From: an archaeon
GTDB taxonomy: Archaea > Iainarchaeota > Iainarchaeia > Iainarchaeales > CSSED10-239
Reading direction: 5' to 3'
NCBI GenBank assembly: GCA_035387745.1
Contig: DAOOON010000004.1
Location: 37,997 to 43,907 of the forward strand
DNA: 5,911 bases
Numbering within the stretch: position 1 is the stretch's first letter; every line of letters begins with the position of its first letter. This document shows positions 1-5,890 of the stretch, one piece after another. Position numbers and translations under genes: made by a program. The notes below the pieces were generated by a model that saw only the letters and a program-made list of their open reading frames with translations, made no database searches and was not told where the DNA came from.

Positions 1-261
1 TATAAGCCAGACTATATTGGCATACACTCTGGAATTGACATGCAGCACATGGGAATTAAACCTCTTAAAACCCTTATTGATTTATCAAAGATTATGGATA
101 GTAAAAAAATCGCAATTGCTGGCGGAATTAATCTTGAAACTATAGAAAGCATAGCAAAATACAAGCCAGGAATCATTATTGTTGGTGGAGCAATAACAAA
201 TGCTAAAGATCCAGTTTCTGTTGCCAAGAAAATGAAAGAAATAATGAAAAAATATGAGTAA
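1..261 (+). CDS. hps: 3-hexulose-6-phosphate synthase (HPS; OMP-decarboxylase-like ribulose-phosphate-binding barrel), C-terminal fragment; the 5' end lies outside the window
   Basis: Frame 1 is open from base 1 (YKPDYIGIHSGIDMQHMG...), so the ATG at 40 is internal. The translation ...IAIAGGINLETIESIAKYKPGIIIVGGAITNAKDPVSVAKKMKE shows the terminal beta-alpha units with AGGI and VGGAIT phosphate-binding loops typical of HPS and the related KGPDC enzymes. HPS is favoured over KGPDC because the gene overlaps a clear PHI gene by 8 nt. Stop TAA at 259-261. Confidence 0.75.
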   Translation, partial: YKPDYIGIHSGIDMQHMGIKPLKTLIDLSKIMDSKKIAIAGGINLETIESIAKYKPGIIIVGGAITNAKDPVSVAKKMKEIMKKYE

Positions 262-820
262 AGACATTGACGATATTCTTGAAAGAATAGTAAATGAAAT
301 AAAAATTTCTTTAAAGGACATTAGTGAAATTAAAACTAGCAGGTTTGTAAAAGAAATCCTAACTTCAAAGAAAGTGTTTGTTACTGGTCAAGGCAGAAGT
401 GGGCTAATCGCAGAAAGCTTTGCAATGAGGCTTATGCAAATGGGAATAAAAACATACCATATCGGAGACAGCACAACTCCTGCCATCTCTAAAAACGATT
501 TGCTTGTTGCAATCTCTGGCTCTGGTAAAACAGAAATCACAAATATGATTATTAAAGAAGCAGATAAAGCAAAAGCAAAAGTAATACTTATAACAAATAA
601 GAAAACAACAAAAGAAAAAAAAAGAATCAGAAACACAGACTTGATAATTGAGATTAATGCGAAAGCAAAGACTGACAAGAAAAAAAAATCAATTGAACCA
701 CTTGGAACATTATTTGAACAAGCAAGCCTAGTATACCTTGATGCAGTTATTGTCTTACTTATGGAAAGACAGAATGTTAAAGAAAAAGATCTTGGCAAAA
801 GACATGCAAACTTAGAATAA
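254..820 (+). CDS. phi: 6-phospho-3-hexuloisomerase (PHI), SIS-domain sugar-phosphate isomerase
   Basis: The 188-aa ORF has the SIS-domain core VFVTGQGRSGLIAESFAMRLMQMGIKTYHIGDSTTPAISKNDLLVAISGSGKTEIT. The C-terminal string SIEPLGTLFEQASLVYLDAVIVLLMERQNV...GKRHANLE matches what I recall of HxlB/PHI-type proteins. ATG 254 overlaps the upstream stop (ATGAGTAA). Stop TAA at 818-820. Confidence 0.85.
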   Translation: MSKDIDDILERIVNEIKISLKDISEIKTSRFVKEILTSKKVFVTGQGRSGLIAESFAMRLMQMGIKTYHIGDSTTPAISKNDLLVAISGSGKTEITNMIIKEADKAKAKVILITNKKTTKEKKRIRNTDLIIEINAKAKTDKKKKSIEPLGTLFEQASLVYLDAVIVLLMERQNVKEKDLGKRHANLE

Positions 821-870
821 AACCATATAATTATAAGGGTTTTGATAGTTAATATAAAATATATTTTAGA
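821..870 (+). promoter_or_regulatory. Candidate promoter region in the only sizeable intergenic gap (TATA-like / -10-like AT-rich boxes)
   Basis: TATAAT lies at 826-831 and TTAATATAAAATATAT at about 849-864, upstream of the GH130 gene. TTGATA at 842-847 resembles a -35 box but has no well-spaced -10. In DNA this AT-rich such matches are expected by chance, so this is only a candidate. Confidence 0.25.
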
Positions 871-873
871 TTT

Positions 874-877
874 GGAG
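874..877 (+). promoter_or_regulatory. Shine-Dalgarno-like GGAG, 5 nt upstream of ATG 883
   Basis: The sequence reads tttGGAGcagaaATG. Spacing and motif are canonical, which supports the long form of the GH130 ORF that includes the N-terminal extension. Confidence 0.6.
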
Positions 878-882
878 CAGAA

Positions 883-1320
883 ATGAAAACTTACGTTAAA
901 AAAGGAAAAGTATCTATAGATGAAACCACACCAGAAGAGATACTTAATCCGGCTACTTTTACGAACACTATTAAAAAAACCGCTCTTCTTAAAAAAATAA
1001 ATTACGATTTAGAAAAGAGAGAAACTAAACCTATAGACATAAAAAAGACAATTGTTCCTGAAAAAAAAGAAACAATAGACATTAAAGAAAATATAACTAG
1101 AGAAATAAAAAAGATAATTATAGATAATACAGAAAAACAGATTATTAAAAAAACTTATCCAAATACAGAACTTAAACACATACCTCTAGATAAATCCTAT
1201 TCTGAAAAGAAAGAAATAGAAGACTATAATCTAAAAAATGAAAAAATTAATAAAAAATTAAACACTGGTCTTTCTGATAGATTAAAACCAAAATTAAAGA
1301 AAATACATAGAAACCCAGAA
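883..1320 (+). other. 146-aa Lys/Glu/Ile/Thr-rich low-complexity N-terminal extension preceding the GH130 domain
   Basis: MKTYVKKGKVSIDETTPEE...KPKLKKIHRNPE has no hydrophobic stretch and no motif I recognise. By eye it contains degenerate 13-16-residue repeats at about nt 1021-1194: ETKPIDIKKTIVPEKK / ETIDIKENITREIKK / IIIDNTEKQIIKK / TYPNTELKHIPLDK. No in-frame ATG, GTG or TTG lies close to the domain start at 1321, so the extension appears to be translated. Confidence 0.6.
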
Positions 1321-2322
1321 CTTACTTTTTATAAGTCTATTGACAATCCAATAATTTGTCCAAAACCAGAAAATGGCTGGGAGTCTTGGCAAACTTTTAA
1401 TCCTGCAGCGATCTTGATTGATGATAAGGTTCATTTTTTGTACAGAGCTATTGGAGACGACGGCATGTCCAGATTTGGTTATGCAATGTCTGAGGACGGT
1501 TTTGTAATTAGAGAAAGACTTTCTTATCCAGCTTATGTTCATGAAATTGTTAAAGGGCCTTATGTTTTTTTATCCTCGCCATCTGGCGGAAGCTGGGGTG
1601 GCTGTGAGGACCCACGGCTTGTTAGAGTTGAAAATGAGGATAGAATCTATGTTACTTATACTGCTTGTGATGGGGGCTTAAGAGTTGGCTTAACCTCAAT
1701 AAAAGTTTCTGATTTTATAAACAAAAGATGGAACTGGAAAAAACCAAAGATAATTTCTCCACCAGGCGAGTGTAATAAAAACTGGTTAATCTTTCCTGAA
1801 AAGATAAACGGTAAATATGCAATCTTACATAGCATTAATTCAGGGAAAATACTAATTGATTACCTTGATAATCTTGATTTTAAAGACGGAAAATTCATAA
1901 AAAGCAAATATCTTCTAACAGAAGTCAGAGCTGACCGCTGGGATAAAAAAGTTAGAGCTGCTGGCCCTCCACCAATAAGAACCAAGTATGGCTGGTTATT
2001 GTTCTATCATGCTGAAGATAAAGACGATCCTGGAAAATACAAACTTGGAGCAATGTTACTAGATATTAATAATCCAACAAAGATATTATATCGCTGTAAA
2101 CAACCAGTACTTGAACCAAAGGAATATTATGAATGTGAAGGATATAAAGGTGGAATTGTTTATGCACTTGGCTCTGTGATTAAAGACGGAAAGCTAATTA
2201 TTTATTATGGCAGTGCAGACAATTTTGTTTGTGTTGCCTATACTGAATTTGAGCCATTCCTTGAAGCCCTAATCAGAGGAGAGAAAAAGCCTCTTAAGCT
2301 TAAGATTCTTAAAAAGAAATAA
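883..2322 (+). CDS. GH130-family glycoside phosphorylase-like protein (beta-mannoside phosphorylase/glycosidase-related, DUF377) with a Lys-rich N-terminal extension
   Basis: The ORF is 479 aa. Residues 147-479 carry the GH130 hallmark string: NPIICPKPENGWESWQTFNPAAILIDDKVHFLYRA, FGYAMSEDG, GCEDPR (nt 1600-1617), IYVTYTA, FPEKINGKY, PPIRTKYGWLLFYHA, LGAMLLDINNPTKIL, IIYYGSADN. There is no hydrophobic N-terminal segment, so the protein is predicted cytoplasmic. Stop TAA at 2320-2322. Confidence 0.85.
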   Translation: MKTYVKKGKVSIDETTPEEILNPATFTNTIKKTALLKKINYDLEKRETKPIDIKKTIVPEKKETIDIKENITREIKKIIIDNTEKQIIKKTYPNTELKHIPLDKSYSEKKEIEDYNLKNEKINKKLNTGLSDRLKPKLKKIHRNPELTFYKSIDNPIICPKPENGWESWQTFNPAAILIDDKVHFLYRAIGDDGMSRFGYAMSEDGFVIRERLSYPAYVHEIVKGPYVFLSSPSGGSWGGCEDPRLVRVENEDRIYVTYTACDGGLRVGLTSIKVSDFINKRWNWKKPKIISPPGECNKNWLIFPEKINGKYAILHSINSGKILIDYLDNLDFKDGKFIKSKYLLTEVRADRWDKKVRAAGPPPIRTKYGWLLFYHAEDKDDPGKYKLGAMLLDINNPTKILYRCKQPVLEPKEYYECEGYKGGIVYALGSVIKDGKLIIYYGSADNFVCVAYTEFEPFLEALIRGEKKPLKLKILKKK

Positions 2323-2334
2323 ATCTGATTTATT

Positions 2335-3291
2335 ATGATTATTAAAAGATATGATAAAAATCCAATTCTAAAACCAAATAAAAATAGCTGCTGGGAGTCT
2401 CATTCTACTTTCAATGGCTGTGCAATTAAAAAAAAATATGAGACATTTTTATTTTATAGAGCAATGTCATGTAATGATTTCCATCCGGTTAATGAGCAGA
2501 AGATGGAGATGTCTTGTATTGGTGTTTCTAGAAGCTTTGATGGATTAAATTTTAAAAATAGAAAAGTGTTTATTTATCCTGAAGAAAGCTTTGATAAATT
2601 TGGCTGTGAGGATCCAAGAATCACAAAGCTTCAAGACAAGTATTATATTTTCTATACTGCTCTTTCAGAATATCCATTTAGAGCAAGCGGAATAAAAGTT
2701 GCTGTTGCTATAACTAAAGATCTTGAAAAGATTGAAGAACGGCATCTTGTTACGCCATTTAATGCTAAAGCAATGACTATGTTTCCTGAAAAAATAAATA
2801 ACAAGATTTGGTGCATGTTTACATATCACAGTGACTCTCCACCAGCACAGGTTTGCTTTGCAATATTTGATAAAGAAGAAGATATGTGGTCAAGGGATTT
2901 CTGGCAGAAATGGTATAATAATCATAACAAGTTTGTTTTACCACTACAGAGAAGAGAAAAAGACCAGGTAGAGATTGGTGCACCGCCTATTAAGACAAAA
3001 CACGGCTGGCTATTATTCTATTCTTATATCTATGATTATTTTTCTTCAAACAAAGTATTTAGTATTGAAGCAGTTCTTCTGGACCTTAAAGACCCAACAA
3101 AGATTATTGCAAGAACCAAAGGGCCATTACTAACTACAGAAGAATATTATGAAAAATATGGAATGGTTAATGATATTGTTTTTCCATCAGGAGCAACAAT
3201 AAATGGAAATTACATAAATCTTTATTATGGGGCAGCAGACACCACTTGCTGTGTTGCTTTTGTTGATACCAAGTGTTTGTTTGAACAGATG
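2335..3291 (+). other. GH130 module A of the fusion (divergent paralog)
   Basis: Module A reads IKRYDKNPILKPNKNSCWESHSTFNGCAI...FYRAMS...FGCEDPRITKLQDKYYIFYTA...MFPEKINNKIW...APPIKTKHGWLLFYSY...LLDLKDPTKIIART...LYYGAADT. It lacks the (V/I)S(D/K)DFI..W.W.KP.(I/L)ISPPG insert shared by the other two modules. Confidence 0.7.
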
Positions 3292-4239
3292 CTTCCAAAC
3301 ACTCTAAATAATATTTCATTTATTAGATCAGAGAAAAACCCAATAATTAAACCTAACAAAAAGAATAAATGGGAAGCGCGCTCAACTTTTAATCCTGCAG
3401 CAATATATCTTGATGACAAAGTGCATATTGTTTATAGAGCAGTATCAGATAATAATGTCTCAACAATGGGCTATGCAACTTCTAAGGACGGAATAACTAT
3501 TGACTATAGGTCACCAGAACCAATCTATAAGCCAAGAGCAGAATTTGAAAGCTCTGGTTGTGAGGACCCAAGGCTTACGCAGATTGGAGATAACGTCTAT
3601 ATGCTTTATACTGCTTATGATGTTAGAACAGCGCCACGTGTTGCTTTAACAAAGATCTCTGTTAAGGATTTTATTGCTAACAACTGGGACAACTGGTCAA
3701 AGCCAATCTTAATATCTCCACCAGGAATAAGCGATAAAGATGCTTGCTTTTTCCCAGAAAAGATTAATGGCAAATATTATGTTTTACATAGACTTGAAAA
3801 CGAAATAGATCTTTGCGCAATTGATGATCTTGAGTTTAAAGGCAAGAATAAATATCTAGAAGAAAACAACTGGATGGCACCAAGAAAGGGCTGGTGGGAT
3901 TATAGAAAAGTTGGAGCTGCAACTCCGCCTATAAAAACAAAAGAAGGCTGGATATTATTATATCACGGCATTGCTGAAGACCACTCTTATAGTGTTGGAG
4001 CTGCTTTACTTGATCTTAATGATCCTACAAAGATACTTGCAAGAACTGATGAGCCGATCTTTAAGCCAGAAAAAGATTATGAAAAATCCGGGGATGTTCC
4101 AAATGTTGTGTTTCCTTGCGGGGCCATTGTTAAAGACAACAAAATATATATTTACTATGGTGGTGGAGACTCTGTTACTGGTGTTGCAAGCATGGAAATT
4201 GAGTTGCTACTAAAAAAATTAAAACTTTGCAGGTGCTAA
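2335..4239 (+). CDS. Two-module GH130 fusion protein (tandem Glyco_hydro_130/DUF377 domains)
   Basis: The 634-aa ORF starts 12 nt after the upstream stop, with no SD visible. Two complete copies of the GH130 motif series are present, with GCEDPR at nt 2602-2619 and 3556-3573. Each copy runs from KNPI(L/I)KPNK...W(E)..STFN through FPEKIN, PPIKTK.GW.L.Y and LLDL.DPTKI.ART to YYG..D. The copies are joined by a short linker EQMLPNTLNN (about nt 3283-3312). Stop TAA at 4237-4239. Confidence 0.85.
   Translation: MIIKRYDKNPILKPNKNSCWESHSTFNGCAIKKKYETFLFYRAMSCNDFHPVNEQKMEMSCIGVSRSFDGLNFKNRKVFIYPEESFDKFGCEDPRITKLQDKYYIFYTALSEYPFRASGIKVAVAITKDLEKIEERHLVTPFNAKAMTMFPEKINNKIWCMFTYHSDSPPAQVCFAIFDKEEDMWSRDFWQKWYNNHNKFVLPLQRREKDQVEIGAPPIKTKHGWLLFYSYIYDYFSSNKVFSIEAVLLDLKDPTKIIARTKGPLLTTEEYYEKYGMVNDIVFPSGATINGNYINLYYGAADTTCCVAFVDTKCLFEQMLPNTLNNISFIRSEKNPIIKPNKKNKWEARSTFNPAAIYLDDKVHIVYRAVSDNNVSTMGYATSKDGITIDYRSPEPIYKPRAEFESSGCEDPRLTQIGDNVYMLYTAYDVRTAPRVALTKISVKDFIANNWDNWSKPILISPPGISDKDACFFPEKINGKYYVLHRLENEIDLCAIDDLEFKGKNKYLEENNWMAPRKGWWDYRKVGAATPPIKTKEGWILLYHGIAEDHSYSVGAALLDLNDPTKILARTDEPIFKPEKDYEKSGDVPNVVFPCGAIVKDNKIYIYYGGGDSVTGVASMEIELLLKKLKLCRC
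3313..4236 (+). other. GH130 module B of the fusion (closest to the upstream single-module gene; most canonical motif set)
   Basis: Module B reads ISFIRSEKNPIIKPNKKNKWEARSTFNPAAIYLDDKVHIVYRAVS...MGYATSKDG...SGCEDPRLTQIGDNVYMLYTAYD...FFPEKINGKYYVLHR...TPPIKTKEGWILLYHG...LLDLNDPTKILART...VPNVVFPCGAIV...IYYGGGDS. Confidence 0.75.
4231..4235 (+). promoter_or_regulatory. Shine-Dalgarno-like AGGTG, 7 nt upstream of ATG 4243, embedded in the last codons of the GH130 fusion gene
   Basis: The sequence reads gcAGGTGctaatatATG, and AGGTG is complementary to the usual 16S 3' tail. Confidence 0.45.
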
Positions 4240-4242
4240 TAT

Positions 4243-4575
4243 ATGAAAGAAACAAAAAGGCCTTGGGGTAAATTTCTAACCTTTGCAAAAAACCAAAAAT
4301 GCACAGTTAAGATTCTTGAGGTTAATCCTGGAGAATCCCTAAGCCTACAAAAACACAAGCTTAGAGAAGAGCATTGGTATTTTCTAGACCCTGGTATTGT
4401 TCAGATTGGTAATTCTAAGAAAAAGATTGCTGCAGGAAAAGAAGTAATAATTAAGAAAAACAAAGAACACAGGCTTGTTGCAGGAAAGAACAAAACAAGA
4501 GTTTTAGAAATTTCTTTTGGTAATTTTTCAGAAAAAGACGAAGTAAGGTTAGAAGATAAATATGCAAGAAGATAA
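4243..4575 (+). CDS. Stand-alone type-II phosphomannose isomerase cupin domain (MannoseP_isomer-like), putative mannose-6-phosphate isomerase
   Basis: The 110-aa ORF aligns by eye along its full length to the C-terminal PMI domain of bifunctional ManC-type enzymes: KRPWGKF...VKILEVNPGESLSLQKHKLREEHWYFL..G......(I)..G..V.I.....HRL.....K..VLEISFG.F.E.DEVRLEDKYARR. The cupin ligand pattern G-x5-Q-x-H-x4-E (G30, Q36, H38, E43) and the motif-2 His (H76) are present. Stop TAA at 4573-4575. Confidence 0.7.
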   Translation: MKETKRPWGKFLTFAKNQKCTVKILEVNPGESLSLQKHKLREEHWYFLDPGIVQIGNSKKKIAAGKEVIIKKNKEHRLVAGKNKTRVLEISFGNFSEKDEVRLEDKYARR

Positions 4576-5890
4576 GGCATTTAAAACAAATGACATAAGA
4601 GGAATATACCCCAAAGAAATAAACGAAAGCCTTGCTTATTTAATTGGAAAAGCAATAGTCTATAAGTTTAAGCCAAAAGTTGTTGTTATTGGAAGAGACG
4701 CAAGAGCTTCTTCTCCTTTGCTTTTTTCTAGTGTTGTTAAAGGCGTTCTTGAAAGTGGCTGTGATGTTATTGATATTGGTCTAACTAATACTCCTTTGTT
4801 TTATTATTCTGTTGGAGAACTAAAAGCAGATTTTGGAATAATGATTACTGCTTCGCATAACCCTGGACAATATAATGGCTTTAAGCTTGTTAAAAAGGGT
4901 GTTGTTCCAACAACCGCAAAAGAAATACAAGATATAAAAAATATAATTCTTGAAAAAAAAGCAATATCTTCAAAGCCTAAAAAGCTTGGTAAAATAATCA
5001 GAAAAGAGATTTCTGAAAAATATCTTAAAAAGCTATTGTCTTACTCAAAAATTAAAAAGAAACTAAAAGTTGTTGTTGACACTGGTAACGGCATGGCTGC
5101 ACCAATTGTTTCTAAGGCCTTTTCTAATTTGCCAATTTCTGTGATTTATATTAATAAAAAAATGGACATGATTAAACCTAAACACGAGGCAAACCCATTA
5201 AAGATAGAAACCTTAAAGGAATTACAAAAAGAGGTTAAGAAAAACAAAGCAGATATTGGTATTGCCTTTGACGGCGATGGCGACAGGGTTGGCTTTGTTG
5301 ACGATAAGGGTGAAATAATCCCTATGGATTTTATTACTGCTTTACTTGCTAAATATTTCTTAGAGAAAAAACCAAAATCTAAGATAATTTATGACATTAG
5401 AAGCAGCAACATTGTTAAAGAAACGGTTCTTGCAAGTGTCGGAATTCCTGTAGAATACAAGGTTGGCCATTCTCTTATTAAAAAAAAGATGAGAGAGATT
5501 AATGCTGTGTTTGCTGGAGAGATTAGTGGGCACTATTATCTTCCTGAGTTTTATTATTGTGAAGCTCCAATCTTTATTTCCATAATCTTAATGAACTATT
5601 TAGAGAGAGAAAAGCTATCAAAAATGATTTTGCCATTTAGAAAATACTATAAAAGCCCAGAGATCAATTACAAAATAAAGAATCCAGAAAAGAAGATAAA
5701 AGAACTAAGAAATAAATATTCTTCAGGAAAGATAAAAACCCTTGATGGACTAAAGATCGAATATCCTGACTGGTGGTTTAATGTCAGAGGTAGCCACACA
5801 GAACCACTTCTTCGCCTTAACCTTGAAGCCAACACTAAAGAGCTTATGGTAAAGAAGCTAAAAGAAATCGAAGATATAATAAAAAAATAA
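4562..5890 (+). CDS. Phosphomannomutase/phosphoglucomutase (alpha-D-phosphohexomutase superfamily, ManB/AlgC-like)
   Basis: The 442-aa ORF carries all four signature loops. These are the phosphoserine loop TASHNPGQYNGFK (Ser codon 4853-4855), the Mg loop DGDGDR (5270-5287), the sugar loop GEISGH (5516-5533) and the phosphate loop RGSHTEP (5786-5806). The N-terminus has FKTNDIRG. The start overlaps the cupin gene by 14 nt. Stop TAA at 5888-5890. Substrate preference (Man vs Glc vs GlcN) cannot be fixed from motifs; the context favours mannose. Confidence 0.9.
   Translation: MQEDKAFKTNDIRGIYPKEINESLAYLIGKAIVYKFKPKVVVIGRDARASSPLLFSSVVKGVLESGCDVIDIGLTNTPLFYYSVGELKADFGIMITASHNPGQYNGFKLVKKGVVPTTAKEIQDIKNIILEKKAISSKPKKLGKIIRKEISEKYLKKLLSYSKIKKKLKVVVDTGNGMAAPIVSKAFSNLPISVIYINKKMDMIKPKHEANPLKIETLKELQKEVKKNKADIGIAFDGDGDRVGFVDDKGEIIPMDFITALLAKYFLEKKPKSKIIYDIRSSNIVKETVLASVGIPVEYKVGHSLIKKKMREINAVFAGEISGHYYLPEFYYCEAPIFISIILMNYLEREKLSKMILPFRKYYKSPEINYKIKNPEKKIKELRNKYSSGKIKTLDGLKIEYPDWWFNVRGSHTEPLLRLNLEANTKELMVKKLKEIEDIIKK

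Follow-up and report, generated by a model that had tools for sequence, protein, structure and literature searches.

A conserved archaeal gene cluster predicted to connect beta-1,2-mannoside phosphorolysis with phosphoribosyl pyrophosphate synthesis

The closest characterised system to the gene cluster described here is that of Thermoanaerobacter sp. X-514, in which two members of glycoside hydrolase family 130 (GH130), Teth514_1788 and Teth514_1789, are an oligomannan phosphorylase and a mannobiose phosphorylase, respectively (PMC4264767). A second system of relevance is the reverse ribulose monophosphate (RuMP) route, which runs through hexulose-6-phosphate synthase (HPS, HxlA) and phosphohexuloisomerase (PHI, HxlB) and which the section of PMC12628685 citing Orita 2006 treats as an established archaeal source of ribose 5-phosphate (Rib-5-P), in Thermococcales. 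Among DPANN phyla, HxlA and HxlB have been reported only in Altiarchaeota (PMC8407392). Here we analyzed a 5,911-bp stretch of archaeal DNA (the window), an entire metagenome contig, on whose forward strand six genes follow one another: the C-terminus of HPS, PHI, a single-module GH130, a two-module GH130, a cupin-type mannose-6-phosphate isomerase (PMI) and a phosphohexomutase of the phosphomannomutase/phosphoglucomutase (PMM/PGM) type. Because the survey saw HxlA and HxlB only in Altiarchaeota, the clade of the window is unusual in having this pair. By comparison with relatives, the window covers the last three-quarters, toward the 3' end, of a presumed operon with the order Prs-RpiB-HPS-PHI-GH130-GH130x2-PMI-PMM, and we consider it probable, with moderate confidence, that the encoded enzymes turn a cytoplasmic beta-1,2-linked mannoside into phosphoribosyl pyrophosphate (PRPP).

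The contig breaks inside the HPS gene. In L006, where the contig of a 97% identical relative runs to 117 kb, the genes for PRPP synthase (Prs) and the ribose-5-phosphate isomerase RpiB stand directly upstream of HPS on the same strand with 4-nt overlaps, and both proteins score above their NCBIfam cut-offs. Their position extends the path to PRPP and makes it likely that HPS and PHI work in the biosynthetic direction. Relatives were collected in three ways: the double GH130 protein was used to scan a single genome of each species, PHI was used to scan metagenomes, and the contigs of PHI homologues were looked up. The eight proteins then served as phmmer and BLAST queries to annotate these loci, and the flanks of the cluster were read over 10 kb in either direction. 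The metagenome scan with PHI gave 16 loci, of which L104-L106 were discarded as weak, irrelevant matches to the SIS domain.

The initial annotation, which had linked the mannoside genes to the RuMP pair, had made this link depend on the adjacency being conserved in relatives. It was kept in all relatives whose PHI is at least 60% identical to that of the window, with the same gene order as far as the contigs reach. Nine lineages of one archaeal clade share the order; all eight genes are present in six (L006, L091, L011/L092/L093, L094, L013 and L107), and the other three are cut only by contig ends. Identity per protein falls to 54-70%, and the divergence is congruent across the eight genes. 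Since the order recurs in independent assemblies as well as in nine diverged lineages, the arrangement is not due to chance. In L107, which is 58-70% identical, the cluster is surrounded by the genes of the archaeal core proteins Rpb6, S17e, Pelota, primase large subunit and PCNA. NCBI records label proteins that are the same as those of the window, or nearly so, 'archaeon' or 'Candidatus Diapherotrites archaeon', and with this gene context we take the organism to be a DPANN-type archaeon.

More distant relatives, with a PHI identity of 46-61%, keep Prs-Rpi(A or B)-HPS-PHI and carry other genes after PHI. A cupin glucose-6-phosphate isomerase (PGI), a GH15/trehalase-like hydrolase and a ROK kinase follow PHI in L109/L110 and L113, a GH15-like hydrolase and a ROK kinase in L117, a cupin PGI and a ROK kinase in L111/L112, and a divergent GH130, a ROK kinase and a glucosamine-6-phosphate (GlcN-6-P) deaminase (NagB) in L114. 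L115 has no feeder genes after PHI, and L116 has PGI, hydrolase and ROK kinase after PHI, with the upstream genes absent. The variety of these modules suggests that the slot holds interchangeable feeders of fructose 6-phosphate (Fru-6-P), and, because a sugar kinase reaction is irreversible, the alternative modules would deliver Fru-6-P only. Prs-Rpi-HPS-PHI thus appears to be a conserved core, the genes after PHI an exchangeable supply module, and the GH130-PMI-PMM module of the window is, by analogy, best read as a Fru-6-P feeder. The comparison supports the catabolic over the anabolic direction, as the initial annotation had preferred, because other Fru-6-P feeders occupy the same slot in relatives. 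In the L114 locus (5218-11666) a divergently oriented PMI-type cupin gene precedes Prs-RpiA-HPS-PHI, and a 407-aa GH130, the ROK kinase, the GlcN-6-P deaminase, a GT4 gene and a PIG-L gene follow; its GH130 is 27-29% identical to the window GH130 proteins, and this variant may be a feeder of the mannosyl-N-acetylglucosamine (Man-GlcNAc) type.

From family membership, the following path can be proposed. The C-terminal GH130 module would phosphorolyse beta-1,2-oligomannan to alpha-mannose 1-phosphate (Man-1-P) at no cost of ATP; PMM would convert Man-1-P into mannose 6-phosphate (Man-6-P), and the cupin PMI would convert Man-6-P into Fru-6-P. PHI and HPS, running in the reverse RuMP direction, would then yield ribulose 5-phosphate (Ru-5-P) and formaldehyde, after which RpiB would form Rib-5-P from Ru-5-P and Prs would form PRPP. 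The mannoside-to-pentose link that had initially been proposed is strengthened by the conserved adjacency, the upstream Prs and RpiB, and the alternative feeders; its reading of all three GH130 modules as phosphorylases goes too far, and the linkage is predicted to be beta-1,2, as the active sites described below indicate.

The six genes are packed exactly as first described, with overlaps of 8 and 14 nt and gaps of 62, 12 and 3 nt (Table 1), and the minus-strand open reading frames (ORFs) are short (136 aa at most) and lie inside the six plus-strand genes. All six family assignments were upheld by Pfam and NCBIfam profile searches. The HPS fragment matched profile positions 127-205 of 205 of its NCBIfam model (E = 1.4e-22). 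It is 97% identical over the shared part to the full-length orthologue L006:7293-7925, which scored 216 bits against a cut-off of 200; the full-length HPS of L013 scored 210 bits. PHI scored 187 bits against a cut-off of 160, so that HPS and PHI both match at equivalog level and, with their genes side by side, form an HxlA/HxlB pair. The PMI cupin scored 63 bits against a Pfam cut-off of 23.6. It carries the motifs SLQKHxxREEHW (SLQKHKLREEHW in the sequence) and EHRL, which we take to be metal ligands as in AlgA-type PMIs. The mutase matched PF02878, PF02879, PF02880 and PF00408 and has all four signature loops, TASHNP96, DGDGDR237, GEISGH319 and RGSHTEP409 (catalytic Ser, Mg, sugar and phosphate, respectively); its assignment to mannose phosphate is favoured because the gene adjoins PMI and GH130.

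Table 1. Features of the window, in positions of the 5,911-bp stretch.
Feature	Position	Strand	Remarks
HPS/HxlA, C-terminal 86 codons	1..261	+	partial ORF, gene truncated by contig end; TIGR03128
PHI/HxlB, 188 aa	254..820	+	overlaps HPS by 8 nt; TIGR03127, SIS domain PF01380
PHI-GH130 spacer, 62 nt	821..882	+	conserved AT-rich block and GGAG
Single-module GH130, 479 aa	883..2322	+	PF04041, E = 9.3e-38
N-terminal GH130 module of the 634-aa double protein	2335..3300	+	ORF 2335-4239; aligned with 9fj8 and 9erh
C-terminal GH130 module of the double protein	3325..4239	+	same ORF; alignment to Teth514_1788, E = 4.7e-65
Cupin, type II mannose-6-phosphate isomerase family, 110 aa	4243..4575	+	PF01050
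Alpha-D-phosphohexomutase (PMM/PGM type), 442 aa	4562..5890	+	overlaps PMI by 14 nt; four PGM_PMM domains

No regulator, transporter or secretion signal interrupts the six genes, as had been noted at the outset and as the gene content and a hydropathy scan confirmed. A simple hydropathy scan (not SignalP) found no hydrophobic N-terminus or transmembrane-like segment in any window protein. For both GH130 proteins the maximum hydropathy over 19 residues is at most 1.03, in agreement with a cytoplasmic location without a signal peptide. A tRNA scan found no tRNA gene in the window, and an Rfam scan found no match in the window or in L006. Counts of sigma-70 promoters and intrinsic terminators were not above those of shuffled sequence, a scan that is uninformative for an archaeon.

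We then asked what the three PF04041 modules might do, of which the 479-aa protein has one and the 634-aa protein has two. Criteria for GH130 beta-1,2-mannoside phosphorylases were taken from Table 2 of PMC7660257 and from PMC12814180. These are a catalytic proton-donor Asp (D104 in UhgbMP, D137 in Uhgb_MS), an Arg/His pair for phosphate, and an Arg-Glu-Lys-Asp pattern in the +1 subsite that marks the beta-1,2 linkage, where beta-1,4 enzymes carry Tyr/Arg. The phosphate pair is R168/H231 in UhgbMP and R202/H261 in Uhgb_MS, the equivalence of His261 being our own count from the alignment. The modules were aligned to Teth514_1788 and Uhgb_MS, and a residue census was made over about 77 species (63 for the single GH130).

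The catalytic Asp is present in all three modules, as D243 in the single GH130 (63/63 species), D93 in the N-terminal module (76/77) and D411 in the C-terminal module (77/77). The beta-1,2 pattern is likewise complete and essentially invariant across species: R188, E242, K299 and D446 in the single GH130, R42, E92, K145 and D302 in the N-terminal module, and R368, E410, K468 and D612 in the C-terminal module. The predicted substrate is a beta-1,2-linked mannoside, the linkage to which the residue signature points, and not a plant-type beta-1,4-mannan.

The phosphate site sets the modules apart. The C-terminal module is the sole one with the Arg/His pair (R486 in 77/77 species, H544 in 75/77). 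Its phosphate set (K468, R486, K525, H544) and its full signature (R368, E410, D411, K468, D469, R486, K525, H544, D612) are complete, and it is 40% identical in structural alignment to Teth514_1788, a long-chain 1,2-beta-oligomannan phosphorylase. The double protein as a whole scored 462 bits with NF052550 (cut-off 450), and its AlphaFold2 model (pLDDT 92.8, pTM 0.86) had 9gph/9fj8 as the best Foldseek match, with a target TM-score of about 0.9. The single GH130, whose closest solved structure is Teth514_1788 (PDB 9fj8; GH130 module at about 153-461), has the key residues R188, E242, D243, K299, N300, S317, R358, H376 and D446. It keeps the His (H376), its third basic residue is shifted by one position (R358), and S317 stands at the Arg position, where 48 of the 63 species have Ser and 5 have Arg. 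In the N-terminal module the corresponding residues are A146, S166, Q211 and S230; across the 77 species Arg is never found (Ser or Thr instead), Ser replaces His in 74, and Gln or His stands at the third basic position. This module has invariant carboxylates of its own, D167, D210 and E213, each in 77/77 species.

Three phosphorylases had been expected, and that expectation holds for the residue set of the C-terminal module only, the single GH130 lacking the Arg and the N-terminal module both the Arg and the His. A GH130 enzyme that makes three phosphate contacts and not four behaves as a transferase with weak phosphorylase activity (PMC12814180), and the Ser-for-Arg exchange gives the single GH130 this three-contact pattern. 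In GH130 phosphorylases a Glu227/Glu268 pair turns the enzyme into a hydrolase (PMC4599007); the D167/D210/E213 carboxylates of the N-terminal module recall that pair. Judged by these residues, the single GH130 and the N-terminal module probably act on that glycan in other ways, for instance by hydrolysing it, by synthesising it, or by handling short chains or primers.

The single GH130 opens with a low-complexity extension (codons 1-150, 883-1332) rich in Lys, Ile, Thr and Glu, with G+C down to 0.25. It measures about 105-150 aa in the closest lineages, is shorter in L011/L093 (411-aa protein), and is absent in L013, L094, L107 and all homologues from the Candidate Phyla Radiation (CPR), these proteins having about 374-390 aa. 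We considered it as a signal or anchor and rejected this, since it contains no hydrophobic stretch and differs in length from lineage to lineage.

The 62-nt spacer between PHI and the single GH130 is the largest gap in the window. It holds the block TTTTGAT...ATATAAAATATATTTT at 840-867, followed by GGAG at 874-877, and the alignment shows the block kept in L006, L011 and L013, one of them a relative of 62% identity; it may be an internal archaeal TATA-type promoter with a ribosome-binding site. A terminator scan, uninformative for an archaeon, found no terminator-like site at 821-882. The spacer shrinks to about 36 nt in L094 and 20 nt in L107, which argues that the two halves of the cluster are coupled.

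The two GH130 genes occur far beyond this clade. The single GH130 lies directly upstream of the double GH130 in essentially all 80 retained loci, and at least 594 matching species-level genomes carry the pair, mostly CPR/Patescibacteria and some DPANN, with 50-62% identity to the window protein outside its own clade. Among same-strand neighbours, a PMI cupin occurs in 25 of the 80 species-level loci, and a HAD-IIB 'eukaryotic-type' PMM, unrelated to that of the window, adjoins the pair in 10 of the 80. The presence of two unrelated PMM families beside the same pair indicates that the pair is independently tied to the metabolism of Man-1-P and Man-6-P. An RfaE-domain-II-like sugar-1-phosphate nucleotidyltransferase adjoins it in 13 CPR loci, in 3 of them fused to the HAD PMM. 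These fusions lie directly downstream of the pair in L030 (12218-13501), L031 (12224-13498) and L049 (12184-13515); they are candidate bifunctional enzymes leading from Man-6-P to nucleoside diphosphate (NDP)-mannose, and we know of no description of such a fusion. In genomes of Aenigmarchaeota, Woesearchaeota and CPR, the pair occurs without HPS and PHI.

In the clustering of neighbours, antisense shadow ORFs of the GH130 genes dominated and were discarded, and ABC ATPase/permease, MacB/FtsX, HlyD and P-type ATPase genes were not counted as partners because they lie on mixed strands and in a minority of loci. The upstream GH130 gene is itself about 610-660 aa long in about 16 loci, which belong to Moraniibacteria and to bins labelled 'Bdellovibrionales'. 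In bins labelled Methanobacterium, Bathyarchaeota, Gammaproteobacteria and Dehalococcoidales, the nearest neighbours of the pair are CPR-like, suggesting mis-binning or transfer.

Several points weigh against the conversion of a mannoside into PRPP by this operon. We know of no natural beta-1,2-mannoside source in these habitats, and no transporter is found among the operon genes. The eight-gene arrangement is limited to one clade, so that a single ancestral fusion with vertical descent explains part of its conservation. By residue set, the C-terminal module alone is a canonical phosphorylase. The mutase scores below the NCBIfam cut-offs both for archaeal GlmM (378 of 439) and for PMM/PGM (362 of 618), which leaves room for another sugar specificity. 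The conserved TATA-like block implies that the GH130-PMM half may have a promoter of its own, and the RfaE-like nucleotidyltransferase beside the pair hints at NDP-mannose synthesis, the opposite direction. Finally, bacterial-type transketolase and transaldolase are found in 22-42% of DPANN genomes (PMC8407392).

Three other explanations were weighed. The first, an endogenous storage cycle resembling the mannogen of Leishmania, we regard as unlikely, although it would refine the proposed path rather than replace it, the mannoside being endogenous and the reserve tied to Fru-6-P and PRPP. Here a store of beta-1,2-mannan in the cytoplasm would be both assembled and degraded by the GH130 modules, the altered ones synthesising it from NDP-mannose or Man-1-P or trimming it, the C-terminal module phosphorolysing it, and PMI and PMM acting in both directions. 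Such a polymer is a proven reserve in Leishmania (PMC10913872, PMC4264767). GH130 beta-1,2 phosphorylases are reversible and have weak transferase activity with GDP-mannose, which the authors of PMC12814180 themselves consider a perhaps physiologically irrelevant side reaction. The transferase-like three-contact pattern of the single GH130 in 48/63 species and the conservation of the pair at 55-60% identity over at least 594 reduced genomes of two domains are in keeping with a reserve, the residue patterns being suggestive. The lack of a transporter in the operon and of signal peptides would be natural for an internal store, and nucleotidyltransferase-PMM fusions stand beside the pair in CPR genomes; the archaeal operon, however, has neither a nucleotidyltransferase nor a glycosyltransferase, and beta-1,2-mannan is so far unreported from CPR or DPANN cells. 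A broader form of this idea, that CPR and DPANN cells hold a cytoplasmic beta-1,2-mannan reserve as a prokaryotic counterpart of mannogen, run with divided labour by the three-module GH130 set, is in our view doubtful. In it the single GH130 may be synthase-like, the N-terminal module hydrolase-like and the C-terminal module the phosphorylase. If this were true, PMM, PMI and the reverse RuMP route would, in the DPANN clade of the window, wire the reserve to PRPP, and the stored sugar could be drawn upon specifically for nucleotides when the host supply fails.

The second explanation, in a direction that the initial annotation had named as a competing reading, is a purely anabolic branch point, at which Fru-6-P from elsewhere would be turned into PRPP through PHI, HPS, Rpi and Prs and, through PMI, PMM and reverse phosphorolysis, into a beta-mannoside destined for a glycan or cell-surface polymer. 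Reverse phosphorolysis is indeed efficient for Teth514_1788 (PMC4264767, PMC12814180), and the nucleotidyltransferase-PMM neighbours in CPR genomes would suit synthesis. The slot in related operons is nevertheless filled by catabolic Fru-6-P feeders (ROK kinase, GH15/trehalase-like hydrolase, cupin PGI, GlcN-6-P deaminase), no glycosyltransferase, flippase or export gene is present in the operon, and the products would be cytoplasmic, so we hold this branch to be quite improbable. Equally little weight can be given to the third, an adjacency without pathway meaning, in which a GH130-PMI-PMM cassette once landed beside Prs-Rpi-HPS-PHI or HPS and PHI serve to fix or detoxify formaldehyde: the confinement of the eight-gene order to one clade, the GH130 pairs without HPS/PHI in Aenigmarchaeota, Woesearchaeota and CPR, and the TATA-like block in the spacer would all suit it, but synteny is kept down to 54-70% identity with junctions that overlap or span 3-36 nt, this one position gained different Fru-6-P feeders in repeated, independent events, and Prs and Rpi in the operon argue for the biosynthetic direction.

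Some further observations concern the sequence and surroundings of the cluster. Nucleotide identity between the window and L006 is 0.89-0.93 over positions 1-4800 and falls to 0.75-0.81 from about 4800, inside PMM. The window PMM is 73-79% identical to those of L006, L091 and L011, which are 81-90% identical among themselves; the drop looks like a recombination breakpoint and the gene like a mosaic, diverged allele. Among L002-L005, two independent assemblies start at the same HPS base and two others 228 nt further, contigs of 32 kb and 34 kb included, which suggests that strain heterogeneity or a repeat just upstream breaks the assemblies. A convergent AAA_14/DUF4143 ATPase gene follows PMM in lineages down to 58% identity (L001 6308-7567, L006 13561-14820, L107 15457-16611); in L002 (5969-9414) an acetyltransferase and a radical-SAM gene are inserted between the two. 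Further downstream a ResIII helicase and an N6/N4 methylase resemble a defence island. Location on a mobile element, considered in view of these downstream genes (AAA_14/DUF4143, methylase, helicase), was rejected, the operons of L107, L109 and L111 lying among archaeal informational genes. The only transporter-like gene near the cluster is L006 4642-5880 on the minus strand, divergent from Prs, which encodes a 412-aa membrane protein with weak similarity to DASS/ArsB/CitMHS anion transporters.

Our literature searches found no description of a RuMP pair clustered with GH130, PMM and PMI, in agreement with the suspicion voiced when the window was first annotated, and nothing on an arrangement of Prs, Rpi, HPS and PHI in one cluster. 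They also found no link between GH130 and DPANN and, for CPR, only one paper, which notes in passing that a Microgenomates genome has two GH130 genes (PMC7143001). The enzyme families are all known. Three things are new, none of them described in the literature that we searched: a module for mannoside phosphorolysis with PMM and PMI has been fused to a Prs-Rpi-HPS-PHI operon, the feeder is replaced in related lineages, and CPR and DPANN share a conserved GH130 set of three modules, each with a differentiated active site.

The current view is that DPANN and CPR organisms obtain nucleotides and most building blocks from their hosts. Here a DPANN-type clade has a compact, conserved operon that would lead from hexose to PRPP, with an entry module swapped between lineages (a mannoside module, a glucoside module with glucose kinase, or an amino-sugar variant), and it gives a testable picture of ribose supply in reduced genomes. 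The triple-module GH130 system of CPR and DPANN is very widespread and strongly conserved, and its predicted substrate is a rare beta-1,2-mannoside; its three differentiated sites are natural test cases for the switch between phosphorylase, transferase and hydrolase in GH130 and GT108.

The likeness to the mannogen enzymes of Leishmania (GT108, MTP1-7; PMC10913872) lies in paralogous five-bladed beta-propellers that differ at the phosphate-pocket Arg, and in a host-dependent organism in which synthesis and phosphorolysis of cytoplasmic beta-1,2-mannan are divided among the paralogues. Leishmania differs in being a eukaryote, in the CAZy family, and in that the reserve function is proven there and hypothetical in the window organism. 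The resemblance is functional only: all 18 PDB sequence matches of the three modules (E of 0.001 or less) are GH130 and none is an MTP, and the top 35 Foldseek matches are likewise all GH130. The N-terminal module resembles the GH130_3 beta-1,2-mannosidases BT3780 and BACOVA_03624 (PMC4599007) in having the catalytic Asp and the beta-1,2 Lys without the basic phosphate residues. Those enzymes have a carboxylate pair in the former phosphate pocket, and the carboxylates of the module fall, on sequence comparison, at neighbouring, non-homologous positions. They are also periplasmic or secreted, and distant, with E values of 1e-12 to 1e-17 to the N-terminal module against 5e-42 for Teth514_1788.

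As summarised in PMC4264767, the GH130 catabolism of Bacteroides and Ruminococcus shares with the proposed path an ATP-sparing phosphorolysis followed by PMM and PMI to Fru-6-P. These systems act on beta-1,4 linkages, with Tyr/Arg in the +1 subsite where the window modules have Glu/Lys, employ secreted glycanases and importers, and feed glycolysis rather than PRPP. With Thermococcus kodakarensis and Pyrococcus horikoshii the window shares the direction assumed for HPS and PHI, from Fru-6-P to Ru-5-P and formaldehyde, as given in the passages of PMC12628685 that draw on Orita 2005/2006. As points of difference from the Hps-Phi described there, the two enzymes are not fused but have a gene each, these genes are flanked by Prs/RpiB on one side and a sugar-feeding module on the other, and the lineage is DPANN-type. 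The cluster of Thermoanaerobacter sp. X-514 (PMC4264767) comes closest, with adjacent GH130 paralogues that divide the labour on cytoplasmic beta-1,2-oligomannan, no signal peptides, and alpha-Man-1-P, which in the window is predicted, as the product. It differs in having an ABC importer, a GH5 gene, a Man-1-P guanylyltransferase and a GT4 gene, and in its proposed end product, GDP-mannose. The window, by comparison, lacks an importer; two of its three GH130 modules are fused, two of the three have altered phosphate sites, and PMM and PMI would lead to Fru-6-P and are joined to HPS, PHI, Rpi and Prs.

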